Made by a program: the position numbers and the translations under genes | Part shown: in pieces, positions 8,237-64,000 of the stretch | Position numbering within the stretch: the first letter of the stretch is position 1 | Layout of the letters: the number at the start of each line of letters is the position of its first letter | Notes under the pieces: model-generated | Seen by the model: the letters and a program-made list of their open reading frames with translations, nothing else | The model's database searches: none | What the model was told of the DNA's origin: nothing | Origin: Shigella phage Sf16 | Strand: one strand, 5' to 3' | DNA: 64,000 bases | Sequence record: MF158043

Positions 8237-10472
8237 TGGCACAATATACAGTTGATAGTTTTATTGTTGAACTTGGATTCAGTGAAAAGGTTATTAAGGG
8301 TTTGCAAAGAGTTGAGAAAATGGCTATGCAGTCTGCTCAACGTATCGAACGCAATATCAATAAAGCCTTTGATGTGAAGCCTAATAGAAGTTCACAAGAC
8401 GCTCTAAACAGACTTGTAAAAAACGCTCAGACTGCTTCAGGCAGAATCAATAAATCCCTAAACAATGCTATGAATTTAGATTCACAAGGTGTAAAATCAC
8501 TTCGTAGATTAGAAACACAGGGTAAGAAAACAGCCAAAGAAATTAATAAGGCTCTAAGACAAGCTATGAATGTTGAAGGTAAAGTCAATGTTCGTGGTGG
8601 AGTTGGTAGAGGCCGTGGTAATACTATCCCTCCGGTTGGAGGTGGTGGTTCACCTAGAGTCAGACCTGATATTGCTCAAAGACAGATGGAAAGAATGTTT
8701 AACAACAACTTCTATTCTGGTTTGACTCGTCGTCTTGAAACAATTGGTGGACAAGGCAACCAAATGGCTACTTCCTTCAGAGGAAGCTTACAAGGAATCT
8801 ATAATAAGTACAAAGGTAGTGGTAAAGTTGGTGAGTATGAGATGGAAGTTAAGAAACTCATTGACACTACCAAACGTTGGGTTATTGCAGAAAATGCTAG
8901 ACTTAAGGCAGTCAGAGAGTCAGCTTGGTTACAAGACAGAGCAAACTCTTCACTAAGACAGCTTGTAGGTGGTTTTGTTTCAGCGTATGCTATGCTGGAA
9001 TTAGCTCAGAAGACTATTGATGCAGGTGTAAAGAGACAGTCTGCACAGTTAGCCTCAACAGCTATCTTTGGAGGGGATACACAGCAAGCGAGAATGTTCG
9101 CTGCTACGTTCTCTCACCAGATTGGTCAGAACTACACAGACACTATGAAGCAGTACTCAAACTTCGCTGCTGGTGCTCAACCAGAGTTAGGTTTCCAAGG
9201 GACTCAAGAGTTCTATAAGAATGCTGCTATGTTCTCACGTATTCGTGGTGCTTCTGATGAAGACTTGAAAGGTATCATGGTTGCTTTCCAGCAAATGGCA
9301 TCTAAAGGTAAGATTCAGGCTGAAGAACTTCGTGGACAGTTAGGTGACCGTTTGGCAGGTGCTGTTCAGTTATTCTCTGATGCTATTGGTAAAACTCCAC
9401 AAGAACTTGACAAGATGATGAAAGATGGTCAGCTTCTTGCAAAAGACGTTCTACCAAAAGTCTCAGAAAAAATGAGAGAGCTTGTTGAAGCAGCAGGTGG
9501 TATGAATGCAGTTTCTAAGCAGACAGCTACCTCTATGGGTCAAGCAAAGGCAATGTGGGATAACACCCTTGTAGCTTTGTTTAACAACTCTAGCGAAGGT
9601 ATCTCACAACTCTCTAACTCAGTTGCAATGTTCTTGCAAGGTTCCCTTGGTACATCTGAAGCACTTGGTACAGGTATTGGTTACCTTTTAAAAGGTGCTA
9701 GTAACCTTCTAGACTTCGTGACAGATATCATGTACCGCATTTCTTCATTATACTATACCTCAATGGGCTATTTCAAGGAATTAGATGCTAGTCAACAGAA
9801 ACTAATCAAGGATTCTGCTGAGTTAGTTGCTACGTTCACCGCTATTGGTGTCTCAATTGCAGCTATTACAAAAGTCGCTAAAATCTTTGGTGGTACTGTA
9901 GCATTTGTCAAGAGTATCTTTGAAGAAGGTATCTTAGCTAAGATTGCACAGAAGTTTGGATTAACTACAGCAGCAGAAACAGCAGCTACAACGGCTGGTG
10001 TATCAGCAACCAGAATGGCTCTTGGTGTAGGTGGTTCTGCATTAATGTTATCTGGTTCAGTTGACAAGAATGCTGGAAAGAGATTTAACGAGGTTAACAC
10101 ACCTAATCCTTTCAATGAAGCTATCTCAGGAATCACTAATCCAAAACGTCCAATGTTCTTTGACCAGAATGGACAACTTCAGTTTGCACAATATACCACA
10201 GACACTTCTGGAAATATTCAGAGAGTTGATAATGGTTTGTCAAATTGGGATATTATCATGAACAACCTGTCTGAGTCTCTAAATAACTTTGCAAACAAGT
10301 TTAACCAGACACCTATGATGATGACTCCTTCTGGACTACCATTGCAAACTAAGCAGACGCTTAACGTTTCCTTTAATCTGGATGGTAAGCAGATTGCTAC
10401 TAAGATGGTGGATATCACTGATAAGAGTCAGGAAGATATTCTGTTAAACTCTAGCTACCCAGAGGATGAATA

Positions 10473-10473: not shown

Positions 10474-13234
<2,761 letters not shown>

Positions 13235-13235
<1 letters not shown>

Positions 13236-13651
13236 TGAAAACAGATTTTGCAATCAATCTTGGTGGTGACTACGTAGCTAAATTAGGAAATGATTCTGTA
13301 TACGTTGCTCACGGAGATTTAAAAATTACGGGTAATCAGATTAGAATTATCCCAGAAGACGATAAAGCTACTCAGGTAGCTCAAAGATTACATATTAGGT
13401 GTCTTCTAAGGGCTGGAGAAGTATTCTTTAATACATCTGCTGGATTCCCTTATTTACAGCTTGCTAAGTTCAAGCAGAAGACCTCTATTTTTGATAATTA
13501 TATGAAAGGTTACCTTGTTGAAACGAGAGATGTAACAAACATCTACAACTACTCTTCAACAATGGATAATGCAATGAGAAAAGTGTCAGTCAGATTTAAT
13601 GCAACGACAACTGCTGACGATGTTGAAATTAATACAGAGGTAAACATTTAA
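13235..13651 (+). CDS. putative baseplate wedge small subunit (gpW/gp25-like)
   Basis: 138-aa ORF, gene order. Confidence 0.35.
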
Positions 13652-55676: not shown

Positions 55677-55707
55677 TGTCTGCATGTTTAACAAAATAGG
55701 AGTGCAA

Positions 55708-56256
55708 ATGAAGAAATTTGTTTTAGGTTTGTGCTTATTCTTTACAGCACATTTAGCTACAGCATCTGACTGTCCAGAGCTTACAATCAGCCAGAAAGTT
55801 AATATGTTAAAAGCATATAACTATGGCGAAGGACAGATGGGAAAAGGTTGGGGAATCCCTTTAGCAGCTATAGCCTTACAAGAGTCACAATTAGGTGTCA
55901 TGTTAGAAAATAAAAAGACTCATGATTATGGTGTTTTCCAGAATCACTTGAAGACTGTTGTAAAGCGTAACAAGGTATCTCCAAAGGTTGCTAAGAAGAA
56001 GCTAGTAAGTGACTTCCATTACTCAGCGAAAGAGGCTCATAAGGAGCTATTATTCTGGACTAAGGTTCATGGTAACCCAGATGGAAAGTACTCTATGAAG
56101 CGTGTCCTAGCTTCTTATAATGCTGGTTACAAATACAAGATTCCAAAGGCTAGACAATACTCTCAAGATGTGTACAATAACATGAAACTGCTGGCTCAAT
56201 GTGAGTTTGCAACAAACATTAAAAAGGTAAAATATGAGCGAATCAAAACAATTTGA
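55708..56256 (+). CDS. secreted lytic transglycosylase (SLT)-like protein, candidate endolysin
   Basis: ATG 55708 with AGGAG RBS; Sec signal MKKFVLGLCLFFTAHLATA; AIALQESQLG resembles SLT catalytic E-S motif. Confidence 0.5.
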   Translation: MKKFVLGLCLFFTAHLATASDCPELTISQKVNMLKAYNYGEGQMGKGWGIPLAAIALQESQLGVMLENKKTHDYGVFQNHLKTVVKRNKVSPKVAKKKLVSDFHYSAKEAHKELLFWTKVHGNPDGKYSMKRVLASYNAGYKYKIPKARQYSQDVYNNMKLLAQCEFATNIKKVKYERIKTI

Positions 56257-56929
56257 TATGGTTCTGTGTCATGCTTATGATATTAAGCCACTTGATTTAG
56301 ATATCAGTTCTGCAAGTTGGTCAGATATTGCTAGAGCTGACTTTGCAGATACAGCAAGAAATGTTATATGTAGTTTTGAAGACTTTCATTCAACAAAGAC
56401 ACAGATTCCTTGTCAGGATTTGCTAACAGGTAAAACTGTATATGTTGGTCGTAACAGCCTTATCTTGGTTGCAAAGAACTTGGAAGAAAAACGTAAAATG
56501 GTCTTAGCAGACATTGACGGTGTTCTTACAAGCTTTAATAAGGAGCTTAATGCAACTCTGCTAACTGATGGTACTTACTCACAGTACACTGATTTGGTAG
56601 AATCTTGCAGAGCTAAACCAACATATGTTTTTAACATTCTGTGTGGTATATCAAGAAATGCTGATATAGGATTCTTAACTGCTCGTGGTGAATCACAAAG
56701 AGTTGTCACACATCTTTTCCTGAATGAGAATGTAGACAGTGATTTCCTACTGTTTATGCGTGGATTTGGTGACAATGAGATTAGTGCAGAAAGTTTGAAA
56801 GTTCGTATGCTTCAGTCTTGCATTCTACCTTACTATGATGTAGTATGCTTTATAGAAGATACAGTGAAGAACGTGGAGAAGGTTGAAAGAATCTTACCAC
56901 ACATCAAAACAATGCTTGTTAAAAACTGA
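56234..56929 (+). CDS. putative HAD-like phosphatase
   Basis: LADIDGVL (DxDG[TV]), FLTAR and downstream Asp motifs; weak. Confidence 0.3.
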   Translation: MSESKQFDMVLCHAYDIKPLDLDISSASWSDIARADFADTARNVICSFEDFHSTKTQIPCQDLLTGKTVYVGRNSLILVAKNLEEKRKMVLADIDGVLTSFNKELNATLLTDGTYSQYTDLVESCRAKPTYVFNILCGISRNADIGFLTARGESQRVVTHLFLNENVDSDFLLFMRGFGDNEISAESLKVRMLQSCILPYYDVVCFIEDTVKNVEKVERILPHIKTMLVKN

Positions 56930-56940
56930 GAGAGTAAACC

Positions 56941-57405
56941 ATGCAAAACATTATTACAGTAGCTATCGATGCTTCCGGTAACAAATCACAGGTAGTTCGT
57001 GAGATTATCAAAAGTAATTTCGATGGTAAAATCTTTCGTGCAGTAAACGTGAAAGCTGATGGTAACATTCGTGAGTATCGTGCAATGTTGAATGTTACAA
57101 AACACGTTAAGGGTGTTGGTTCAACTACTGCTCATAAAGAAAATCTGATGACTATCTATGATATGGGTATGGCTTCAGAGTTAGGTGCAAAAGGGATTGT
57201 ACAATCCGGTGCTCCTTACCGTTCTTTCAATCTGGAAACTGCTCTTATGCTTTCCTTTACAAGTGGTTCTCAAACTACCACTTACCTCTTCACAGATACT
57301 GCAACGGTTTCTGCGATTAAGGACAATACCATTAAGGCTGGCGTAGCTGCTGCTTCAAAAGCCTCAACAATGGCAGCAAATGTCCTTGCGAAAGTTCTTG
57401 GTTAA
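56941..57405 (+). CDS. hypothetical protein
   Basis: 154-aa ORF. Confidence 0.35.
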   Translation: MQNIITVAIDASGNKSQVVREIIKSNFDGKIFRAVNVKADGNIREYRAMLNVTKHVKGVGSTTAHKENLMTIYDMGMASELGAKGIVQSGAPYRSFNLETALMLSFTSGSQTTTYLFTDTATVSAIKDNTIKAGVAAASKASTMAANVLAKVLG

Positions 57406-57416
57406 AGTTATTATAG

Positions 57417-57441
57417 AGGCTCCTTCGGGAGCCTTTTTCAT
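57417..57441 (+). terminator. rho-independent terminator (UUCG tetraloop)
   Basis: AGGCUCC-uucg-GGAGCCU followed by UUUUU. Confidence 0.6.
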
Positions 57442-57457
57442 TTCTAGGAGAAGTTAA

Positions 57458-57805
57458 ATGACGTTTAAAGAATTTTGTCAAGCAGCTTTTGTAATCATTT
57501 TCTTAACAGGTGTTGGTGCTTGGGGAGGCTACACTTACAAGACCAGCCAAGTTAATGAAAAGGAGCTAACTAACCAGAAACTGGTAAGTGTTGCTAAAGA
57601 TGCTTATCAAGAAGGTTTATCAAATCTTAGCTCCAATTACAAAAATGATTTGAAAGATGTGCTTGCTAAAAACAAACACACCAAAGAGGTATTGAACTAT
57701 GAAAAAACTAAGACAGTCTTTATTAATGATTGTGCTACTGAGCCTTATGTCAGGGTGTTCAACGAGCAAAGTGAGCAGTACCTTCAAAAACTCCCAAGTA
57801 AGTGA
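57458..57805 (+). CDS. i-spanin-like protein
   Basis: N-terminal TM helix FVIIFLTGVGAWGGY, then periplasmic domain; overlapped by lipoprotein ORF. Confidence 0.45.
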   Translation: MTFKEFCQAAFVIIFLTGVGAWGGYTYKTSQVNEKELTNQKLVSVAKDAYQEGLSNLSSNYKNDLKDVLAKNKHTKEVLNYEKTKTVFINDCATEPYVRVFNEQSEQYLQKLPSK

Positions 57806-57965
57806 GAGTGACAAGTATACTCAAGAAGAAGCACGTTATGAGGTTAAAGGCACTAAAGGTGAAGACCTTGCAAGTGCTCTTGAGTTTTATCGTGATGGTT
57901 ACTATGAATGTACTATTAAGGCAAACAATTTAATTGATATGATTTTGTTAGGGAATAAGCAGTAA
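57699..57965 (+). CDS. o-spanin-like lipoprotein
   Basis: lipoprotein signal MKKLRQSLLMIVLLSLMSGC; starts inside the previous ORF in another frame. Confidence 0.45.
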   Translation: MKKLRQSLLMIVLLSLMSGCSTSKVSSTFKNSQVSESDKYTQEEARYEVKGTKGEDLASALEFYRDGYYECTIKANNLIDMILLGNKQ

Positions 57966-58234
57966 TGACAGAGAAGAATGAAACATTTTTTGTGGAAGGT
58001 TATCTTCTGTTACCAAGACCAAGTAACACTTACATGAGATTTGACATTATGCCAACGGTTATGGATGATGTAACTTGTCACATCTTTATGCAGGGTGTTT
58101 CTACACAACTTAAACATGTTGGAAGAGATTGCAAAATACGTGTTGACAACCATCCTGAAATCAACGAGAATCACTACACATGGTTCGGGGAAGATTCTAA
58201 AGAAATCTATGCAGTCCTTAAAACGAGGAAATAA
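57965..58234 (+). CDS. hypothetical protein
   Basis: 89-aa ORF. Confidence 0.35.
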   Translation: MTEKNETFFVEGYLLLPRPSNTYMRFDIMPTVMDDVTCHIFMQGVSTQLKHVGRDCKIRVDNHPEINENHYTWFGEDSKEIYAVLKTRK

Positions 58235-58237
58235 AGT

Positions 58238-58690
58238 ATGAAAGTTCAACCATATTATACTGAGTTTAAAGATTCTAACGGTGAAATCTGCACATTACAA
58301 AGAAGCTCATCATTTGAGCCTCGTATTTGGCTTGGTGCAAAAGAAGTCTCAGTAAAGTATCTGAGCAATGGTTGGAAAGAACTGGATATACCCGCATTGA
58401 CAGGTAAGGATTTTGTAGGTAATCAACGTATGAACCTGAACCAAGCTCAGGTAAAAGAGCTACTACCTTACCTTCAATACTTCGCAGAACATGGTGAGTT
58501 ACCTAACTGTGAAATTTCACCAGAAACACATACTGATAAAAAGCAAGAATTGCTTAAACTGATTGAAGAGTATGGTGATTCTCGTTACAATGAAGCTGGA
58601 GAAAGTTGTGTAGGTTCTGTAGAGGGTTTAACACTCTGGGAAGAAGCCTCAATAGCCTTACTCCAACAAATCAAAGAAGTTATCCAGTGA
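58238..58690 (+). CDS. hypothetical protein
   Basis: 150-aa ORF. Confidence 0.35.
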   Translation: MKVQPYYTEFKDSNGEICTLQRSSSFEPRIWLGAKEVSVKYLSNGWKELDIPALTGKDFVGNQRMNLNQAQVKELLPYLQYFAEHGELPNCEISPETHTDKKQELLKLIEEYGDSRYNEAGESCVGSVEGLTLWEEASIALLQQIKEVIQ

Positions 58691-58696
58691 GGTTTA

Positions 58697-59026
58697 GTGA
58701 TGCAACTAGATGGTAAGAATTATGTAGCCGTCTTTTCAGACGGTGAGAAAGAAATTGGTACAGCACAAGTCTGTCACAGTGGTAAAGAGTTTCTCTATGG
58801 GGTTGTTGCATTCATTGGTACTCGTGGTGATATGAAATCTTTTAAAGATTGTGTTGACAAGCTTGAAGAATCCATAGAGAATCATTGGTGTCTGATATGG
58901 CTTAATGCAGAGAATGTTAAAGAACGCTATGCAAAAGTTGGTATCCATATTGAAAGCATCGAACATGTTGACCTGTTTGAACTAACTGAAAAGGTGATGT
59001 ATGAAAGCAATTCTGGTAAGAAGTAA
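58697..59026 (+). CDS. hypothetical protein
   Basis: 109-aa ORF. Confidence 0.35.
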   Translation: MMQLDGKNYVAVFSDGEKEIGTAQVCHSGKEFLYGVVAFIGTRGDMKSFKDCVDKLEESIENHWCLIWLNAENVKERYAKVGIHIESIEHVDLFELTEKVMYESNSGKK

Positions 59027-59225
59027 AGTTACACGTCAAGTGTTAGCAGGGGCTATATTTGTTGGACGGGATGAGGTGATGCCATTTGGTTCACGAATCT
59101 ATAAAGGTTCTGTACTATCACATAGCCACTTTAAGGCTGGTGATTTTTGTCACTATATTAACAGGGGCTATCTAAGAGAGGAACTCGGATATTGGAAGAC
59201 CCGCATTAAGGGAAAGATACGGTGA
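59001..59225 (+). CDS. hypothetical protein
   Basis: 74-aa ORF overlapping previous gene end. Confidence 0.3.
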   Translation: MKAILVRSKVTRQVLAGAIFVGRDEVMPFGSRIYKGSVLSHSHFKAGDFCHYINRGYLREELGYWKTRIKGKIR

Positions 59226-59254
59226 CAGAGTATTCTTACAAGAGGTAATCTCAA

Positions 59255-59455
59255 ATGGCTGATTTCTGCACTAAGTGTTCTGTTGAGATGTTTGGAAAAG
59301 ACACAGGGGACTTAAAAGGCCTCTTTACAAAAGCAGAGTTTGAAGCTGGTTCAGCAATGCCAGTAATCTGTGAAGGTTGTGGTGCTTTATGGGTAGACCA
59401 TGAAGGTAACCGAGTTAAACCATCTGAAGATAACGAACGTTGGGAGCATTACTAA
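59255..59455 (+). CDS. small zinc-ribbon protein
   Basis: CTKC ... CEGCG cysteine pairs. Confidence 0.4.
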   Translation: MADFCTKCSVEMFGKDTGDLKGLFTKAEFEAGSAMPVICEGCGALWVDHEGNRVKPSEDNERWEHY

Positions 59456-59456
59456 T

Positions 59457-60251
59457 ATGGGTATCGTAAAAATTATTAAAGGTGATATCTTTAAAGACTT
59501 TGATGGTAAGAAATTTGATATCATTGGTCACGGTTGTAACTGCATGAACTTGATGGGTGCAGGTATCGCAGCAACAATTGCCAAACGTTACCCAAAAGCT
59601 TATGAAACTGACGCTGAAGTTTATGCTACAGTAGGTGGTGAAAATCATAACCCTAAGCATCTAATGCTTGGTAACATCTCTGTAGCACGTTTTAAGCAGG
59701 GTCGAATTGCTAACCTTTACACTCAGGTTATCACTGGCAAAGATGCACGATACAACGCCTTAGAAGCAGCTTTACAGCGTCTTAACAACTACTGTAAAGT
59801 TAATCAACTTAAGAAAGTTGGGCTTCCGATGATTGGTGCAGGGATTGGTGGTCTTGATAGCATGGCTGTGCTGTCCATTATCAACCAGACTATGAAGGAT
59901 GTTGACGTTTATATGTATGTCTATGAAGATAAGATGTACAGTCAGTTGACTAGTCCTGTTACTGGTTGGGAGAACTTCAGTGAGCCTCAATACTTTGATG
60001 GTGTTGCTGTGGTAGGCAAGGATAAAGTTACCCTCAAGGTGAAGCGTAATGGCAAGGTACACACCAGTTACCCTCCGGTTGAGAAGTACAATCGAAGTAA
60101 CGCTCAAGTTACCCACCCGTTACAAGGCCACCACCACAGAGCGGTAACGTTTGGCGATGATGCAAGTGTATATATCAATGCGACTACAGAAGAGTTTGCA
60201 GAAGATTATATCACACATGAAAACGTAAACTATGTTGAAGCACGTAACTAA
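59457..60251 (+). CDS. macro-domain protein, TARG1/DarG-like ADP-ribosyl hydrolase (putative)
   Basis: IKGDIF...DIIGHGCNCMNLMGAGIAATIAKRYP and LPMIGAGIGGLD...VYMYVY match the TARG1/DarG macro pattern; extra C-terminal ~110 aa. Confidence 0.65.
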   Translation: MGIVKIIKGDIFKDFDGKKFDIIGHGCNCMNLMGAGIAATIAKRYPKAYETDAEVYATVGGENHNPKHLMLGNISVARFKQGRIANLYTQVITGKDARYNALEAALQRLNNYCKVNQLKKVGLPMIGAGIGGLDSMAVLSIINQTMKDVDVYMYVYEDKMYSQLTSPVTGWENFSEPQYFDGVAVVGKDKVTLKVKRNGKVHTSYPPVEKYNRSNAQVTHPLQGHHHRAVTFGDDASVYINATTEEFAEDYITHENVNYVEARN

Positions 60252-60277
60252 TAAGTCACCTAGATAGACATAGACAA

Positions 60278-60325
60278 GCCCTCCAAAGTTTGAGTTTTAA
60301 ATCTCAGGTAAGGAGGGCTTTTTCA
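60278..60325 (+). terminator. putative terminator
   Basis: GCCCUCC ... GGAGGGC stem with long loop, then UUUUU. Confidence 0.4.
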
Positions 60326-60515
60326 TTTCAAATCTGTGCAGGTATAGTTGAGTAGAACTCTGGACAGATTTCTTTAACTGAACTCCAAAGGGAAATTTCA
60401 TTTTCAAAACGTACAGGTCTAGACTCCAAAGAGCTTTTTCATTTTCAATCTGTGCAGATGCAGTTGGACTCCAAAGGGAAAATTCATTTTCAAATTGTGC
60501 AGGTAGGTAGCTGTA
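60281..60515. repeat. four degenerate ~45-bp direct repeats
   Basis: unit ACTCCAAAG(G/A)G...TTTCATTTTCAA(A/T)(T/C)TGTGCAG(G/A)T seen four times. Confidence 0.55.
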
Positions 60516-60522
60516 GGAAACC

Positions 60523-60556
60523 AGCCCCACCACCCCCTCTTACTCCCCTTCCTCCC
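60523..60556. other. C-rich polypyrimidine tract
   Basis: cccaccaccccctcttactccccttcctccc. Confidence 0.4.
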
Positions 60557-60676
60557 AAAAGTCAAGCTAAAAATTTGTAGAGAACTGAAAAATAATTCTT
60601 GACGAGATTTCTGTTTTAGTGTATTCGCATACGTGCGTTCTATTCACGAAACATAAAATATTTTTAAAAAATTTTG

Positions 60677-60703
60677 TTGACTTCATAAATCCAGTCTTAT
60701 AGT
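60677..60703 (+). promoter_or_regulatory. promoter TTGACT-15-TATAGT with AT-rich upstream element
   Basis: hexamers read directly; first promoter of the small-ORF array. Confidence 0.5.
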
Positions 60704-60755
60704 ATTTGCATCAACGGGAAACATCCCAACAATCCTAAACTGGAGAATCTAAAAA

Positions 60756-60962
60756 ATGTTATATCAACGTGAGTTAATGATTGTTGACAACAACAAAACA
60801 AATAAACGTCGTTTCTATATGCTAATTTGTGATGTTTGGCAACGCATTTCAGAAAAGGATTTTGATAAATATGTTGATACGTCAATCAGGTCAGATTGTT
60901 ACTTGACAACTCATACAAGACAGTTTACAAGGCATACAGCAATTTATTATTACAACGTTTAA
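60756..60962 (+). CDS. hypothetical small protein
   Basis: 68-aa ORF preceded by conserved leader CCTAAACTGGAGAATCTAAAA. Confidence 0.35.
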   Translation: MLYQRELMIVDNNKTNKRRFYMLICDVWQRISEKDFDKYVDTSIRSDCYLTTHTRQFTRHTAIYYYNV

Positions 60963-60973
60963 AAGGCTTGACA

Positions 60974-61135
60974 ATGATTAAAGAAAACGATGTAATACAA
61001 TACAAAGATTTGGACGGATACCCAAAAATTGGTAAAGTTTTCTATCTCTATAAGTCTGCTATGGGTAATGATTGTATAGCCCTTATAAATGGCGACAAAA
61101 TAACCATGAAAGATTTTATAAAAATTATTGCATAA
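60974..61135 (+). CDS. hypothetical small protein
   Basis: internal ATG 60974 of track ORF 60896-61135. Confidence 0.3.
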   Translation: MIKENDVIQYKDLDGYPKIGKVFYLYKSAMGNDCIALINGDKITMKDFIKIIA

Positions 61136-61218
61136 AGTGCTTTACATGGGGTTTAAAAGCTAGTATCTTAAGCCCAGATAAAGAGCTTTACAAACAATCC
61201 TAAACTGGAGAATCTAAA
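61136..61218 (+). promoter_or_regulatory. repeated promoter/stem-loop/leader element (PeSL-like), copy 1
   Basis: TTTACA-17-TATCTT, hairpin CTTTACATGGGG...CCCCAGATAAAG, conserved leader and GGAG RBS. Confidence 0.5.
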
Positions 61219-61599
61219 ATGAAATATCGTGCGCCTAAATTTATCAACAAAGAAAACTTTCGTAGTATCTTAGAGGAAACTATGAAAGAAAACTTCAAAG
61301 AAAAAATAATTGTTGTTCACGCTTACAATTTTAAGTATGATGTTAATGGTAACCGTATTAACCACTACAAAGCTACTATGCTTGACGGCACATTATCCGG
61401 TGAAAAAGCTATCATAAATGCTATTGCAGGACGTGGTAAAACTGTGATACGATGCGAAAAAAGACGCTATCAAGGCGGAAAATATGGATATGAAGATGCA
61501 ATGTACCATCTTGATAAAATGGGGTATGATGTAGAGAAAGCTGGAGTATCTCAAACGATTGGTAGTGACGGCTACGTTACAGTTTTCAAAATTAACTAA
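61219..61599 (+). CDS. hypothetical small protein
   Basis: 126-aa ORF after element copy 1. Confidence 0.4.
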   Translation: MKYRAPKFINKENFRSILEETMKENFKEKIIVVHAYNFKYDVNGNRINHYKATMLDGTLSGEKAIINAIAGRGKTVIRCEKRRYQGGKYGYEDAMYHLDKMGYDVEKAGVSQTIGSDGYVTVFKIN

Positions 61600-61691
61600 A
61601 TAAAGTCCTTTACATGGGGTTTATAGTTAGATAAGATAAGCCCCAGATAAAGAGCTTTACCAAACAATAACCTAAACTGGAGAATCAAAAA
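61600..61691 (+). promoter_or_regulatory. PeSL-like element, copy 2
   Basis: TTTACA-17-TAAGAT, same hairpin arms and leader. Confidence 0.5.
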
Positions 61692-61949
61692 ATGGCTACT
61701 ATCAAAAACATCATTGTATCTGCAAAATCTCGTGATGACGCTCGCGCAACTGCTAAAAAACTAAATGGCAAAGTTGTTGACAACGGAAAAGAAGCTGCTG
61801 TAAGATGGGGCGTGAAATGTGATAAGGAAATTACTTTAAAACGTAGTTCCTATGACCTTTTCAAAGGTGTAAAAGCAATCGGTAGAACTAATGTCTACAC
61901 AAAGAAAGGTTACAAAATGCACTTATCATTAACTAGCAATTTAATCTGA
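61692..61949 (+). CDS. hypothetical small protein
   Basis: 85-aa ORF. Confidence 0.4.
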   Translation: MATIKNIIVSAKSRDDARATAKKLNGKVVDNGKEAAVRWGVKCDKEITLKRSSYDLFKGVKAIGRTNVYTKKGYKMHLSLTSNLI

Positions 61950-62040
61950 TAAAGTGCTTTACATGGGGTTTATAAGTTGCTAGTATAAGCCCCAGATAAA
62001 GAGCTTTACTAACCAATAGTCCTAAACTGGAGAATCTAAA
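61950..62040 (+). promoter_or_regulatory. PeSL-like element, copy 3
   Basis: TTTACA-17-TAGTAT, same hairpin arms and leader. Confidence 0.5.
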
Positions 62041-62553
62041 ATGAATTTTGTTGAAAGCACCTTTGAAGTTCAAAAAGAAAAATTCACTATCATCTATGAA
62101 GCTGTTAATATTTGTGAAGCATCCCATTGTGTGGAGAATTGGAAGTTTACCGATGAGCACAAAGGCGGGGTTACAATCAAACTTAAAAATCCAGAGCGTA
62201 ACGGGTACAAATATGCAATTCCACAGCATTACAGCCTTGCACAATTGATGAGTGATTATGCTAAGCAAGGCCGCGAAAATCCATCTATAGAGGCTTACAA
62301 GAGCTTACAAGATGAATTACAAAGAGATTTAGAAGCTAACAGCTATGTGCTATTTGCAAAGGTAGAAGATAAAGAAGGTAATACGGTATTAAATAGCTTT
62401 TCACTTGCTTATGGTTTCGATTGGTGTTATCTTGACGGGGAAGATTTAGATTCACGCTTAGAAGAGGAAGTGTCGAACTCCGATGGAGAATCTGAAGTAA
62501 TGGAACGTTTAGAAGCCTTGAAAGATTCTGTTATGAATATCTTTAATATCTAA
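62041..62553 (+). CDS. hypothetical protein
   Basis: 170-aa ORF, acidic C-terminus. Confidence 0.4.
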   Translation: MNFVESTFEVQKEKFTIIYEAVNICEASHCVENWKFTDEHKGGVTIKLKNPERNGYKYAIPQHYSLAQLMSDYAKQGRENPSIEAYKSLQDELQRDLEANSYVLFAKVEDKEGNTVLNSFSLAYGFDWCYLDGEDLDSRLEEEVSNSDGESEVMERLEALKDSVMNIFNI

Positions 62554-62636
62554 AGTGCTTTACATGGGGTTATCAAGTTGATAAGATAGCCCCAGATAAA
62601 GAGCTTTACAAACAATCCTAAACTGGAGAATCTAAA
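62554..62636 (+). promoter_or_regulatory. PeSL-like element, copy 4
   Basis: TTTACA-17-TAAGAT, same hairpin arms and leader. Confidence 0.5.
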
Positions 62637-62933
62637 ATGTTTATTGCCGCAAACGTTAGAACTAAATTAAGCCAGCTATTAAGTAATATCCAATTCATTG
62701 AATCCATGCGCCGTACATCTGAAGCCGTAGAGTGGTATCATGGAAAGATTAACAAAAAGGAAGTAATAATTTGTGTATGGAACTTTTGTAAAGAATACAA
62801 AAAACCATTGCTTCAGGTTGATATCTATGATAACACTAATAAGTCATCGATTAAGACTACTAGAGATATGGTTGATTCATATGAAATTAGTCACACTGGT
62901 AAACTATTTCACAAAGGCGTGAACAAATGTTAA
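62637..62933 (+). CDS. hypothetical small protein
   Basis: 98-aa ORF. Confidence 0.4.
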   Translation: MFIAANVRTKLSQLLSNIQFIESMRRTSEAVEWYHGKINKKEVIICVWNFCKEYKKPLLQVDIYDNTNKSSIKTTRDMVDSYEISHTGKLFHKGVNKC

Positions 62934-63274
62934 TCACATACACTGCAATTTTTATCTCTATTGTGGCGCTCTATAAAGCTCTGCAAGCGCACAGTATAGC
63001 TAATAAGGCACTTACAAGGGATTTAAAAATAAATCTTGTACGGGGATTTTTAGAGCGTTTGAGCTTAGAACAATTGAAACGCTTAGAGATGAGCTTTCGA
63101 TTCAAAGCAGAAACATACCGGATTGATAACATCCTAGACGGTGATTTTAAATTAATCAGTGATTATGACATACTTCTTGAGTCAATTCAAGATATAAACC
63201 TGAAAGATTATTATATCGTGATAGCACAAGAAATTAATAAAAAAGAGCTTGCAATGCAGAATCAAAACAAGTAA
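62927..63274 (+). CDS. hypothetical protein with N-terminal hydrophobic segment
   Basis: 115-aa ORF, no element upstream (translationally coupled). Confidence 0.35.
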   Translation: MLITYTAIFISIVALYKALQAHSIANKALTRDLKINLVRGFLERLSLEQLKRLEMSFRFKAETYRIDNILDGDFKLISDYDILLESIQDINLKDYYIVIAQEINKKELAMQNQNK

Positions 63275-63332
63275 AGTATTCATCAACGGGGCAAGATAGA
63301 AGCCCCAACAATCCTAAACTGGAGAATCTAAA
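63275..63332 (+). promoter_or_regulatory. variant leader element (type B) with GGGGC...GCCCC hairpin
   Basis: shares CATCAACGGG...CCCAACAATCCTAAACTGGAGAATCTAAAATG with the leader at 60704-60755. Confidence 0.4.
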
Positions 63333-63605
63333 ATGTATACTACTAATGACGGTCGCACTTTGAACGTAACTTTAAAACACTATGTAGACGGTGTATTAAA
63401 CTTTGAAGAGTTAAGAGCAGAACAGCACCTATTAGATTGGCAAGTAGCAGGTTTACAAAAAACCGCCACAGGATATGGAAAGAAAATTCCTACATCTTGG
63501 AAAGTTCGATACCTTGGAAAGTTACGCAGAATTTATCAAGATGTTTATAGTAATAGCGGTGTAAGTTATATTATTGTTAGCGGTAAAAAATTGTATTTAG
63601 TCTAA
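63333..63605 (+). CDS. hypothetical small protein
   Basis: 90-aa ORF; its 3-prime 185 bp is duplicated at 63816-64000. Confidence 0.4.
   Translation: MYTTNDGRTLNVTLKHYVDGVLNFEELRAEQHLLDWQVAGLQKTATGYGKKIPTSWKVRYLGKLRRIYQDVYSNSGVSYIIVSGKKLYLV
63421..63605 (+). repeat. 185-bp exact direct repeat, copy A
   Basis: identical base-for-base to 63816-64000. Confidence 0.8.
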
Positions 63606-63695
63606 TAAATTGCTTTACATGGGGTTTAAAAGTTAGTATCTTAAGCCCCAGATAAAGAGATTTACCAACAATCAACCTAAACTGGAGACTAGAAA
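63606..63695 (+). promoter_or_regulatory. PeSL-like element, copy 5
   Basis: TTTACA-17-TATCTT, same hairpin arms, variant leader. Confidence 0.5.
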
Positions 63696-63830
63696 ATGAC
63701 TACAATTAATCACAAAGAAGTTGCAATTTTGAAAGCACGTTTGACCATTAACCGCATCAACATTGTAACATCAGCAGCGCCAGACGAAACACTGCATAAT
63801 ATCATCGGTAAAATTAACAGCACCTATTAG
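63696..63830 (+). CDS. short 44-aa ORF running into the duplicated segment
   Basis: hand translation; terminates at TAG 5 codons into the repeat copy, in a different frame from the original gene. Confidence 0.25.
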   Translation: MTTINHKEVAILKARLTINRINIVTSAAPDETLHNIIGKINSTY

Positions 63831-64000
63831 ATTGGCAAGTAGCAGGTTTACAAAAAACCGCCACAGGATATGGAAAGAAAATTCCTACATCTTGGAAAGT
63901 TCGATACCTTGGAAAGTTACGCAGAATTTATCAAGATGTTTATAGTAATAGCGGTGTAAGTTATATTATTGTTAGCGGTAAAAAATTGTATTTAGTCTAA
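63816..64000 (+). repeat. 185-bp exact direct repeat, copy B (start-less 3-prime gene fragment, truncated by window end)
   Basis: identical to 63421-63605; in the gene frame a stop lies immediately upstream and no start codon is present. Confidence 0.8.

Follow-up and report, generated by a model that had tools for sequence, protein, structure and literature searches.

The question raised by this locus is what the repeated units of about 90 bases between the small genes of Shigella phage Sf16 are for. Each unit combines a host-type promoter within a conserved RNA hairpin with a ribosome-binding leader. They lie at 60677-64000 of the stretch of DNA that was analysed (64,000 nucleotides, the window). 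According to the best matches of the window sequence, the source phage is a Mooglevirus (Ounavirinae), similar to Felix O1, which rules out a T4-like identity. The region is the left portion of an array of small genes of about 7 kb, all directed rightward, which extends beyond the window end and comprises about 20 genes in relatives. We consider it likely, with a probability of roughly 0.7, that the array of this Felix O1-like phage is built from modular expression units of PeSL (promoter-early stem-loop) type. The reading draws on sequence comparison: the repeats, a promoter signature, covariation of the stem, chimeric junctions and hyperplasticity of the region.

Two kinds of cassette in one array

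The window contains five cassettes of type A and two of type B (Table 1). Type A fills the whole gap between two genes, beginning at or just after the stop codon of the first and ending at the start codon of the second. Its three-part hairpin of 21 bp encloses TTTACA, a 17-nt spacer and TAnnnT, and is followed by the leader CCTAAACTGGAG-8 nt-ATG. Type B has a conventional promoter upstream, a small hairpin in the 5' UTR and the same leader.

The first-pass annotation had described five repeated promoter, hairpin and leader elements, and exact motif counts, a covariance model, a promoter scan and folding all bear this out. The leader core CCTAAACTGGAGA occurs exactly seven times in the 64-kb window, between 60734 and 63688 and always on the + strand. 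Allowing up to two mismatches returns only the same seven, compared to 1.76 expected, and none of 100 shuffles reaches this count; in the window, the motif is confined to the array. There are five exact occurrences of CTTTACATGGGG, at 61140, 61608, 61957, 62558 and 63613. A covariance model of type A, built from 44 copies including the five in the window, recovers just those five from the 64 kb (72-86 bits, E <= 7e-18), and the next-best match scores 17.5 bits. The promoter scan reports TTTACA-17-TATCTT/TAAGAT/TAGTAT/TAAGAT/TATCTT at the five type A sites in order, and also TTGACT-17-TAGTAT at 60677. The hairpins fold with -16 to -26 kcal/mol (z -2.0 to -6.5).

In some details the earlier description has to be amended. 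The stem is longer than stated, with 21 bp in three segments; it begins at or just after the upstream stop codon and ends in GAGCTTTA; in the first type A copy, the CCCC run is short by one C and reads GCCCAGATAAAG. The upstream stop codon TAA is part of the hairpin in cassette 1 (61133-61135) and of the stem in cassette 4 (62551-62553). The common leader is present in all seven copies, exact over its full length in four and with 1-4 base differences in the other three. The copies at 60704 and 63275 do share this leader, but not the leader only: each has a sigma70-type promoter just upstream (60677-60705 and 63249-63277), and their hairpin therefore lies in the 5' UTR. The second of these promoters is under the promoter-scan threshold (8/12 matches), and its -10 overlaps the stop codon of the 115-aa ORF.

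Searches with the small array proteins gave no Pfam, NCBIfam or PDB matches, and their PHROGs families, including phrog_5293 and phrog_14219 for the 68-aa and 53-aa ORFs, are all of unknown function. The anti-defence or host-takeover roles that the first-pass annotation had suggested for them are therefore conjectural. The 53-aa ORF is without a cassette of its own, and is missing from Mordin, Sf17 and the Felixounavirus relatives. The 115-aa ORF has a hydrophobic N-terminus. The F20 gene is interrupted at 63815/63816 by a duplication of 395 bp, the junction of which does not fall at a cassette element.

Table 1. Features of the array in the window.
Feature	Position	Strand	Details
Type B cassette 1, array head	60677-60755	+	A/T-rich upstream stretch; promoter scan, fold
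Type B cassette 1 promoter	-35 TTGACT 60677-60682; -10 TAGTAT 60700-60705	+	17-nt spacer; -10 followed by ATCAAC; promoter scan
Type B cassette 1 5'-UTR hairpin	60716-60727	+	GGGA/UCCC; fold
Type B cassette 1 leader	precedes ATG at 60756	+	CAACAATCCTAAACTGGAGAATCTAAAAA
Two small ORFs	60756-61135	+	68 aa (60756-60962), 53 aa (60974-61135)
Type A cassette 1	61133-61218	+	hairpin 61133-61190, leader 61191-61218; -16.1 kcal/mol, 72 bits
Type A cassette 1 promoter	-35 TTTACA 61141-61146; -10 TATCTT 61164-61169	+	
126-aa ORF, family F14	61219-61599	+	missing from some relatives (L019, L056)
Type A cassette 2	61601-61691	+	hairpin 61601-61659, leader 61660-61691; -22.8 kcal/mol, z -6.5, 83 bits
Type A cassette 2 promoter	-35 61609-61614; -10 TAAGAT 61632-61637	+	
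85-aa ORF, family F15	61692-61949	+	deleted in L016, L038; duplicated in L013
Type A cassette 3	61950-62040	+	hairpin 61950-62008, leader 62009-62040; -24.3 kcal/mol, 85.7 bits
Type A cassette 3 promoter	-35 61958-61963; -10 TAGTAT 61981-61986	+	TG-extended -10
170-aa ORF, family F16	62041-62553	+	acidic C-terminus; missing in L054
Type A cassette 4	62551-62636	+	hairpin 62551-62608, leader 62609-62636; -25.7 kcal/mol, z -5.6, 75 bits
Type A cassette 4 promoter	-35 62559-62564; -10 TAAGAT 62582-62587	+	TG-extended -10
Overlapping ORF pair	62637-63274	+	98 aa (62637-62933), 115 aa (62927-63274); no cassette separating them
Type B cassette 2	63249-63332	+	5'-UTR hairpin GGGGC/GCCCC 63288-63306, leader 63307-63332; fold
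Type B cassette 2 promoter	-35 TTGCAA 63249-63254; -10 TAAAGT 63272-63277	+	17-nt spacer; -10 followed by ATTCATCAAC; read from sequence
90-aa ORF, family F19	63333-63605	+	present in 11/11 complete arrays
Type A cassette 5	63606-63695	+	hairpin 63606-63664, leader 63665-63695; -20.6 kcal/mol, z -4.6, 83.7 bits
Type A cassette 5 promoter	-35 63614-63619; -10 TATCTT 63637-63642	+	
44-aa ORF, shortened F20 gene	63696-63830	+	Michonne gp107-like; 135 aa in relatives; phrog_4327 residues 1-41 of 134
Exact second copy of 63421-63605	63816-64000	+	most simply the start of the second unit of the 395-bp tandem duplication
Type A starts, A of AGATAAAG	61176, 61645, 61994, 62594, 63650	+	prediction
Type B starts	near 60713, 63285	+	prediction

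Predicted promoter and hairpin in the same stretch of DNA

Among 142 distinct type A copies from related phages, 141 have TAnnnT downstream of TTTACA, with a spacing of 17 nt in 131 and of 18 nt in 10. Positions 1, 2 and 6 of the -10 hexamer are invariant, while positions 3-5 take all four bases, in 17 different hexamers, and 72 copies have TG at -15/-14. The elements thus appear to carry host sigma70-type promoters. The type A hexamers are weak (4/6 matches to TATAAT) and the discriminator is G+C-rich. Type B promoters are nearer consensus, and their layout is conserved in 78 distinct homologous copies. The A+T content is 73% in the 14-nt stretch of type A, which doubles as the end of the upstream ORF, and 79% in the 10-nt stretch of type B, against 61% in the window, in keeping with a PeSL. 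No transcript mapping for Ounavirinae phages was found in the literature that could be searched, and promoter use and start sites are therefore predictions. In Felix O1, genes 16, 20 and 21, directly downstream of repeats, peak at 5 min in RT-PCR (PMC3185647). The Sf16 array may likewise be expressed early.

The suggestion that selection acts on structure, which the first-pass annotation had proposed to check by covariation, agrees with compensatory stem changes in the 142 copies. The inner nine pairs are paired in 95-100% of them, with swaps between G-C and U-A and between U-A and A-U, and four pair types at pair 9. One outer-stem pair is G-C in 114 copies and U-A in 15. In the set of 44 copies, 92.8% of cells are paired, compared to 31-57% with the partner slid. 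The covariation score is 0.130 against 0.067 in shuffles, none of 500 equalling it, where the counts are uncorrected for phylogeny and, all copies sharing one ancestor, some of the conservation is shared history.

An inverted repeat that overlaps a promoter, with nearly invariant outer halves (CTTTACA..GGGG / CCCC..AGATAAAG), could also be a DNA operator or cruciform, at which a phage or host protein shuts the early promoters off and selection acts on the symmetry of the double-stranded DNA. The ESAS inverted repeats of cluster K mycobacteriophages have been read in this way (PMC3203893). For type A this is very unlikely, because the variable positions change in a compensatory manner and do not keep their sequence. 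Moreover, T·G pairs are frequent (68/142 copies at the fifth inner-stem pair, 128/142 at the outer-stem U·G pair); they would read as A·C mismatches on the other strand, and the reverse case is essentially absent. In addition, the centres of the half-sites are separated by about 33 bp. Folding favours the + over the - strand by 1.35 kcal/mol, a small asymmetry.

Since the G·U pairs are found only in the + sense, the hairpin might instead be a pure RNA element, an RNase III-type processing site or 3' stabiliser in one polycistronic early transcript from the type B promoters, with TTTACA and TAnnnT not in use. With three segments and with internal loops (2x2 and 1x1) that are invariant, the stem of about 21 bp resembles in general shape the RNase III sites between genes of the T7 early region. 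These are likewise long irregular hairpins with internal loops, but they contain no promoter. It also fits this alternative that the upstream type B promoters match the consensus better, and that a cut on the 3' side would free the same leader. Nevertheless, we consider it unlikely. The unpaired T and A of the hexamer are invariant in 141/142 copies while their neighbours vary, and the hexamer is fixed at 17-18 nt from TTTACA and not with respect to the 3' arm, from which its distance shifts between 6 and 7 nt. The AC of TTTACA is unpaired and yet invariant. Such a pattern is a sigma70 signature, which a processing site does not need, and the 5 min peak in Felix O1 concerns genes 3' of type A repeats.

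An intrinsic (rho-independent) terminator does not fit either. No U tract follows the type A hairpin, with AGAUAAAG after the inner stem and UUUACCAAC after the full stem, and the terminator scan gave no + strand site. Canonical termination by this hairpin is therefore unlikely, and the units may lack the terminator function that belongs to a PeSL by definition.

If the units are expression cassettes of the PeSL kind, type A would provide a host sigma70 promoter with the -35 within the 5' arm, and the -10 within the loop and 3' arm of the 21-bp hairpin. Transcription, predicted to start at about the A of AGATAAAG, would produce a 45-nt leader that is essentially without structure and has a standardised strong ribosome-binding site, CCTAAACTGGAG-8 nt-AUG, at its end. 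As the promoter's own transcript would exclude the hairpin, the latter would act on + sense RNA that reaches it from the gene upstream. Its most likely role would be to insulate neighbouring cassettes, be it as a 3' barrier, an attenuator or a processing structure, and not to work as a classical intrinsic terminator. In type B, a stronger conventional promoter (TTGACA/TTGCAA-17-TAAAGT), with A-rich DNA upstream of it, would precede a small hairpin and the same leader. The hairpin would be 2-4 nt from the predicted 5' end, which is the geometry of a 5' stabiliser. A stabilising hairpin at the 5' terminus is known from ompA.

The shared leader

Folding indicates no structure in the predicted 5' UTRs (z -0.1 to +1.6), and the leader is nearly invariant over about 26 nt. 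In the loci examined, the 12-mer CCTAAACTGGAG followed by a start codon occurs 293 times. The gap from GGAG to the start is 8-9 nt in 257/293 leaders, and 7-10 nt followed by ATG in 291/293.

The eight bases 5' of GGAG have no potential to pair with 16S rRNA, and are conserved in 7/7 window copies. Together with the many occurrences of the 12-mer and its confinement to the array, this could mean that a regulator acting in trans after transcription recognises the 12-mer, much as T4 RegB cuts GGAG or RegA represses early mRNAs. SAS elements raise the same puzzle (PMC3203893). Such a regulator, which would supplement the cassette reading, would place the cassette genes in one regulon with a common shut-off. 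We regard it as possible but doubtful. A search for T4 RegB gave only E = 53 in BLASTP and nothing in tblastn on the window, about 24 kb of the genome lying outside it, and Pfam and PDB searches were negative. On this evidence from the window, the cassettes do not belong to the T4 RegB target set. Felixounavirus leaders have the variants CCTAAATTGGAG and CCTTAAACTAGGAG, sometimes within one genome, and homogenisation by gene conversion could explain the leader identity. The part of the leader that the regulator would concern is CCTAAACT, upstream of GGAG. The gene of relatives that is annotated as 'RegB-like' is a homologue of T4 vs.1, not of RegB.

Gene turnover and known repeats

The hyperplasticity claimed for the region holds across the subfamily, with 10 gene orders among 11 complete arrays in Ounavirinae and 16 of 21 families variable; the element-free block upstream has 6 gene orders among 24 loci. 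It does not hold for the closest relatives, in which the window's part of the array is nearly fixed and only the 53-aa gene varies. A fixed gene set in relatives had been named as an argument against PeSL-like units, but the set is not fixed, and deletion junctions are single chimeric elements. Nearly every intergenic gap is an element, so that whole-gene indels are inevitably element-bounded and only chimeric junctions discriminate. Three independent deletion alleles have their breakpoint in the 5' arm (L019), the 3' arm (L016) and the leader (L038), and L054 has a fourth chimeric junction. Mordin contains a tandem A-A scar, joined at CTTTAC. The F25 and F35 genes occupy different positions in different phages, and the array order is shuffled in Erwinia phage M7. 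Within genomes, cassette copies evolve in concert. As about 60-90 bp are nearly identical between units, the units serve as substrates for homologous recombination, by which genes have been lost, duplicated and relocated across Ounavirinae. In Sf17, deletions in three elements are tolerated, and individual units are thus dispensable.

All copies are clearly homologous and the window holds a fresh 395-bp duplication containing an element, so that the repeats might have no present function and be the residue of serial tandem duplication of an ancestral gene with its intergenic region. This is hardly credible, because the flanking genes are mutually unrelated (separate PHROGs), the elements retain 75-100% identity between genera in which the genes themselves are down to about 50-80%, and both the compensatory changes and the pattern of invariant and variable hexamer positions indicate selection.

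PeSL cassettes have been described for the T4-like phages RB49/phi1 (Arbiol et al. 2010, PMC2839356), where promoter and terminator activity was tested experimentally, and for PST/T4 and nt-1/KVP40 (Comeau et al. 2014, PMC4122927). Here as in those phages, composite units of about 100 bp occur among small orphan early genes and cluster in a hyperplastic region. They have a sigma70-type promoter, end in SD and ATG, and carry a stem-loop of a G run and a C run that, as in RB49/phi1, is placed between -35 and -10 or over the -10; indel junctions are chimeric elements. The TTTACW-N17-TAYWAT promoter type of T4/PST PeSLs is also found here. In silico, the PeSL-like reading of the first-pass annotation is supported on all these points, the promoter by sequence evidence. 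The likeness is one of layout. The lineage here is Ounavirinae and not a T4-like myovirus, the stem is much longer (reaching up to the upstream stop codon) and lacks a U tract, the leader is almost invariant, and a second cassette type shares the leader only. PeSL is a functional class and not a homology family, and the non-T4 phage limits the term 'member', not 'works like'. A further trait of PeSLs is the excision of mini-circles when adjacent units recombine.

In promoter-coupled terminators of bacteria (Fletcher et al., bioRxiv 2026, 10.64898/2026.08.19.745784), one DNA stretch likewise serves two transcription units in tandem, coding for the 3' stem-loop of the first and forming the core promoter of the second, and the stem-loop DNA provides the -35. 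There, a T tract in the spacer precedes the -10, whereas the elements described here lack a T tract and have the -10 within the loop.

The SAS and extended SAS of cluster K mycobacteriophages (Pope et al. 2011, PMC3203893) are also asymmetric SD-containing repeats a few bases 5' of ATG. They share one orientation and precede non-structural genes from different families, and about half have an inverted repeat, its spacer variable, in front of them. The resemblance is an analogy only. The 13-bp GGGATAGGAGCCC is unrelated to CCTAAACTGGAG, and SAS lie 3-7 bp from the start codon, compared to 8-9 nt after GGAG here. No promoter has been described in ESAS, the arms of which show no covariation and have been taken for protein-binding DNA sites, whereas here the compensatory changes support RNA pairing. 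The Sf16 units are thus not SAS or ESAS.

The repeats themselves are already in print, unexplained, as a 26-mer likened to SAS in the Mordin genome announcement (2015, PMC4611695), and as 'direct repeats' of 57 bp and 39 bp in Felix O1 (Whichard et al. 2010, PMC3185647). In the Felix O1 paper they went unrecognised as promoters, and secondary promoters were described as unknown. The Felix O1 57-mer corresponds to the type A hairpin with its promoter, and the 39-mer to the type B promoter.

Anatomy and distribution of the cassettes

The array of small rightward genes from 60677 on carries two kinds of cassette. Type A (five in the window) is a stop-to-start unit, in which a TTTACA-17 nt-TAnnnT promoter lies inside a 21-bp hairpin that is followed by a leader. 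Type B (two in the window) has its promoter upstream of a small 5'-UTR hairpin, followed by the same leader. The repetition, originally described from the sequence alone in the first-pass annotation, is confirmed by exact motif counts and a covariance model. CCTAAACTGGAGA occurs exactly seven times, on the + strand only and only within 60734-63688, and CTTTACATGGGG five times. With the covariance model, five full copies and no more are detected in the 64 kb (72-86 bits; next match 17.5 bits); the sub-motif matches at 58147/58160 and elsewhere are chance occurrences inside coding sequence. Of the region's nine ORFs, seven have the leader ahead of their start; the leaderless ones (60974, 62927) begin at most 11 nt after a neighbour or overlap it.

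Sequence features of the two cassette types and of the terminator upstream of the array
Feature	Position	Sequence
Type A start	at or just after upstream stop codon	TAAAGTGC
Type A -35	5 nt further on	TTTACA
Type A -10	17 nt after -35	TATCTT, TAAGAT or TAGTAT
Type A 3' end		CCCCAGATAAAGAGCTTTAC, then leader CAACAATCCTAAACTGGAGAATCTAAA-ATG
Leader portion apart from GGAG and its spacing		CCTAAACT
Type B promoter 1	60677-60705	TTGACT-17-TAGTAT
Type B promoter 2	63249-63277	TTGCAA-17-TAAAGT
Type B, after promoter		AyTyATCAAC, short GGG(G)...CCC(C) hairpin, same leader
Rho-independent terminator	60279-60329	GCCCTCC...GGAGGGC with long structured loop, then TTTTTCATTTC

The type A RNA fold comprises an outer segment of 6 bp, a 1x1 loop, a middle segment of 5 bp, a 2x2 loop, and an inner segment of 8-11 bp closed by a 9-11-nt loop. 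Folding energies range from -20.6 to -25.7 kcal/mol (z -4 to -6.5), except for copy 1, which has an inner segment of 8 bp and reaches only -16.1 kcal/mol. Its hairpin is weaker (about -16 kcal/mol) because one C is lost at 61172-61176 (GCCCAG, GCCCCAG in all relatives), either by a private mutation or by a homopolymer sequencing error. The two type B copies (60704, 63275) had been described as having only the leader and a different hairpin. They also have promoters of their own upstream, which had been missed. Across relatives, 78 distinct type B copies have in common an A-rich upstream stretch, TTGACA or TTGCAA, a 17-nt spacer, a TAAAGT, TAAATT or TAGTAT -10 hexamer, and a hairpin that starts 2-4 nt past the predicted transcription start. 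Such a placement is typical of a 5' stabiliser.

The stretch 60200-64000 is about 96% identical to Shigella phages Sf15, Sf13 and Sf19 and E. coli phage 3HA14, and 78-88% identical to Citrobacter phage Mordin and the SUSP phages. These phages all belong to the Ounavirinae, the Felix O1-like myoviruses, in the genera Mooglevirus and Suspvirus, and their genomes measure about 88 kb. In relatives the array spans about 7 kb with about 20 small rightward genes; the window covers its left part and ends inside it. A single 89-bp copy used as query has 1450 matches, spread over 287 phage records that nearly all belong to the Ounavirinae (Felixounavirus, Mooglevirus, Suspvirus, Erwinia phages). In IMG/VR, a pattern scan returns 46 stretches, and the contigs that carry them are almost all 81-94 kb long.

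Upstream of the array lie rIIA, rIIB, polynucleotide kinase, spanins and a macro-domain gene (59400-60251). The rho-independent terminator that closes this block was missed by the tool's scan because its loop is long; its counterpart is t13 of the Felix O1 paper (PMC3185647). The 500-bp gap from this terminator to the first cassette promoter contains four direct repeats of 41-45 bp (ACTCCAAAGGGAAAtTTCATTTTCAAAnnGTGCAGGT) and then a 34-nt polypyrimidine tract (60314-60558). The minus-strand 'hypothetical protein' (Michonne gp98-like) annotated over these repeats in relatives looks spurious.

The nine ORFs have no sequence match in Pfam, NCBIfam or PDB, and their PHROGs families are all of 'unknown function'. 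The anti-defence role suggested in the first-pass annotation thus gains no support from these searches and meets no contradiction. The 190-aa protein encoded at 55684-56256 is called 'T4 RegB-like' in records of relatives (Mordin_137, Mushroom gp088). It is a homologue of T4 vs.1 (31% identity, BLASTP E = 2e-14), which adjoins regB in T4. RegB-type cleavage of the GGAG leader was considered and rejected: BLASTP against T4 RegB gives only E = 53, there is no Pfam REGB or PDB RegB match, and a tblastn search of the window with RegB was negative. T4 keeps tk.4 (a macro-domain phosphatase), vs, vs.1 and regB together (T4 positions 60922-62740), and the window has the vs.1 homologue and the macro-domain gene in the same early block (55684-60251). 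This gene content hints at an accessory module inherited from a common ancestor.

Promoter signature and relation to promoter-early stem-loops

The promoter assignment draws on 220 type A instances, 142 of them distinct, from the window and 57 further loci. In 141 of the 142, TAnnnT follows TTTACA at a distance of 17 nt (131 copies) or 18 nt (10 copies). Hexamer positions 1, 2 and 6 are invariant and positions 3-5 take all four bases, giving 17 different hexamers; 72 copies also have TG at -15/-14. The spacing between hexamer and 3' arm varies between 6 and 7 nt, while that between hexamer and -35 is kept. The pattern of fixed and free positions, together with the constant -35 distance, is the sigma70 -10 signature. 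Pairing does not account for the invariance of positions 1-2, since these are unpaired loop bases, and the AC of TTTACA is invariant though it lies opposite GA in an internal loop. Transcription is predicted to start at the A of AGATAAAG, which gives 5' UTRs that lack structure (z -0.1 to +1.6). GGAG stands 8-9 nt upstream of the start codon in 257 of 293 leaders.

Indirect experimental support for the promoter comes from Felix O1, in which genes 16, 20 and 21, directly 3' of the corresponding repeats, are among the ORFs that peak 5 min post infection in RT-PCR (PMC3185647). According to the same genome paper of 2010, neither the secondary promoters nor the temporal control of these phages were known, and our literature search found no published Felixounavirus transcriptome and no start-site mapping. 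Each genome of a Felix O1-like phage is now assigned about 15-20 predicted early promoters, and with them a standard leader for translation.

The first-pass annotation had likened the array to the promoter-early stem-loops (PeSLs) of T4-like phages. In RB49 and phi1, a PeSL is defined by an AT-rich stretch, a sigma70 promoter, a Gn-loop-Cn stem-loop located between -35 and -10 or over the -10, and a Shine-Dalgarno sequence with ATG; PeSLs cluster in hyperplastic regions, have tested promoter and terminator activity, and are associated with mini-circles (PMC2839356). All sequence-level features are common to PeSLs and the Ounavirinae cassettes, and the phage lineage is a different one. The cassette is a real, strongly non-random, subfamily-wide regulatory unit that appears to work like a PeSL, with promoter use predicted. 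The interpretation is new for Felix O1-like phages. The repeats themselves had already been noticed: the Mordin announcement reports a 26-mer upstream of eight genes and likens it to SAS (PMC4611695), and the Felix O1 paper lists 57-bp and 39-bp repeats without interpretation (PMC3185647), for which the present analysis offers an explanation. SAS/ESAS differ from the cassettes in sequence and spacing and lack covariation (PMC3203893). Promoter-coupled terminators are a related idea, but with a different geometry (10.64898/2026.08.19.745784).

Selection on the hairpin and its possible role

The selection on structure suspected earlier is borne out by compensatory pairs, found both among the 142 distinct copies and in the tool's count on 44 copies. 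When pairing is counted from anchors, without an alignment, the inner nine pairs are 95-100% paired, and sliding the partner by 1-2 bases destroys pairing. Inner-stem swaps include G-C to U-A (137 vs 4 copies) and U-A to A-U (115 vs 25 and 111 vs 21), and the ninth inner pair occurs as four pair types. The middle five pairs are invariant, and one outer pair is G-C in 114 copies and U-A in 15. In the tool's count, 92.8% of the cells are paired, vs 31-57% when slid. This count is too low because the MAFFT alignment A2 places one hairpin class (GGGGTTATC/GATAGCCCC) out of register, which does not affect the anchor-based count. The covariation score of the 44 copies is 0.130 vs 0.067 in shuffles, with 0 of 500 shuffles as high, although the changes are not independent events because the copies are related.

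T·G pairs are common: of the 142 copies, 68 have one at the fifth inner pair and 128 at an outer pair, whereas there is practically no A·C. Folding also favours the + strand, by 1.35 kcal/mol. Selection on the structure thus operates on single strands of + sense. Since the transcript of the embedded promoter is predicted to start 3' of the loop, the hairpin would act in RNA from the upstream gene. We infer that it is an attenuator, a 3' barrier or a processing site. A canonical intrinsic terminator is unlikely, as no U tract follows the hairpin. MITE-like, attC-like and minus-strand readings were rejected in view of the constant orientation and stop-to-start position, the absence of terminal duplications and of an integrase in the window, and minus-strand scores of 23-35 bits vs 72-86 bits. 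An Rfam search (E <= 1) returned only a chance miRNA match.

A more ambitious and rather unlikely combination is a dual-entry module. The + sense hairpin in read-through RNA would be cut at the invariant internal loops by RNase III or a similar enzyme, so that processed and promoter-initiated mRNAs would end up with the identical unstructured leader. A putative dedicated phage factor would read the invariant CCTAAACTGGAG and switch off the whole regulon of about 20 genes together, and the units would also excise as mini-circles carrying genes. If true, phages of a second lineage, unrelated to the first, would possess a portable gene-cassette system.

Gene-order variation and recombination between units

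The region had also been proposed to be hyperplastic, and comparison of relatives upholds this: the gene set is variable, and the junctions are chimeric elements. According to gene-order maps (greedy ORF calls and BLASTP families), close relatives have the window's gene set save for a 53-aa gene, absent in Mordin and Sf17. Across the subfamily there are 10 gene orders among 11 complete arrays, with 5 of 21 families universal; the element-free block from rIIB to the macro-domain gene has 6 orders in 24 loci, with 6 of 10 families universal. Each of the window's 126-, 85- and 170-aa genes (families F14, F15 and F16) is missing in some relatives, F15 is duplicated in one phage (L013), families F25 and F35 occupy different slots in different phages, and the order in Erwinia phage M7 is scrambled.

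The discriminating evidence for recombination between elements is the chimeric sequence of the junctions. In one locus that has lost F14-F15 (L019), the 5' flank of the F13/F14 element is joined to the loop of the F15/F16 element, which places the crossover in the 5' arm. In another that has lost F15 (L016), the loop of the F14/F15 element is combined with the leader variant of the F15/F16 element, which places it in the 3' arm. The crossover in L038 is within the leader, and the junction in L054, which has lost F16, is also chimeric. Mordin has a tandem pair of hairpin-promoters whose joint is CTTTAC, a short repeat that occurs at each end of every unit. Mooglevirus and Suspvirus have T,T at two diagnostic sites in all copies per genome, whereas Felixounavirus mostly has A/G,C, and the copies thus evolve in concert. 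Together, the sequence comparisons show that the accessory early region evolves through recombination between units. Recombination of this kind has been proposed for T4-like PeSLs. Here it is seen in a myovirus lineage unrelated to theirs, and promoter-hairpin cassettes may therefore be a general route for the shuffling of phage accessory genes. For Salmonella, E. coli, Shigella, Citrobacter and Erwinia, Felix O1-like phages are in wide use both in diagnostics and in therapy. For phage engineering, the units would be ready-made insulated expression parts and predictable recombination sites.

Three cassettes of Sf17 have internal deletions (9880-9930, 12225-12260 and 13195-13240 of its locus, L008). 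One removes the -10 and the stop codon and extends a 115-aa gene to 124 aa, one fuses CTTTACATGGG straight to GTAAACTGGAG, and one removes a type B promoter. Individual units are thus evidently dispensable.

The window itself contains an exact 185-bp direct repeat (63421-63605 and 63816-64000), 395 bp apart, the second copy reaching the window end. It fits a 395-bp tandem duplication (63421-64000) whose unit runs from the 3' part of the 90-aa gene through a type A element into the next gene, of which it includes the first 40 codons. At the junction (ggtaaaatt|aacagcacc), which falls within coding sequence, a 135-aa gene is cut down to 44 aa. The duplication, absent from 31 of 31 matching GenBank records, is either real or an assembly artefact.

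Several records begin or end inside the array, namely MF158041 (Sf15), ON528729 (ESh19), PP047753 (KEP3) and OQ834936 (Henu12), and position 1 of Sf15 falls within a leader. This suggests that short-read assemblies break at the ~90-bp repeats, which leaves the records with arbitrary ends, and the units are probably responsible for the assembly breaks of Felix O1-like genomes at the array.
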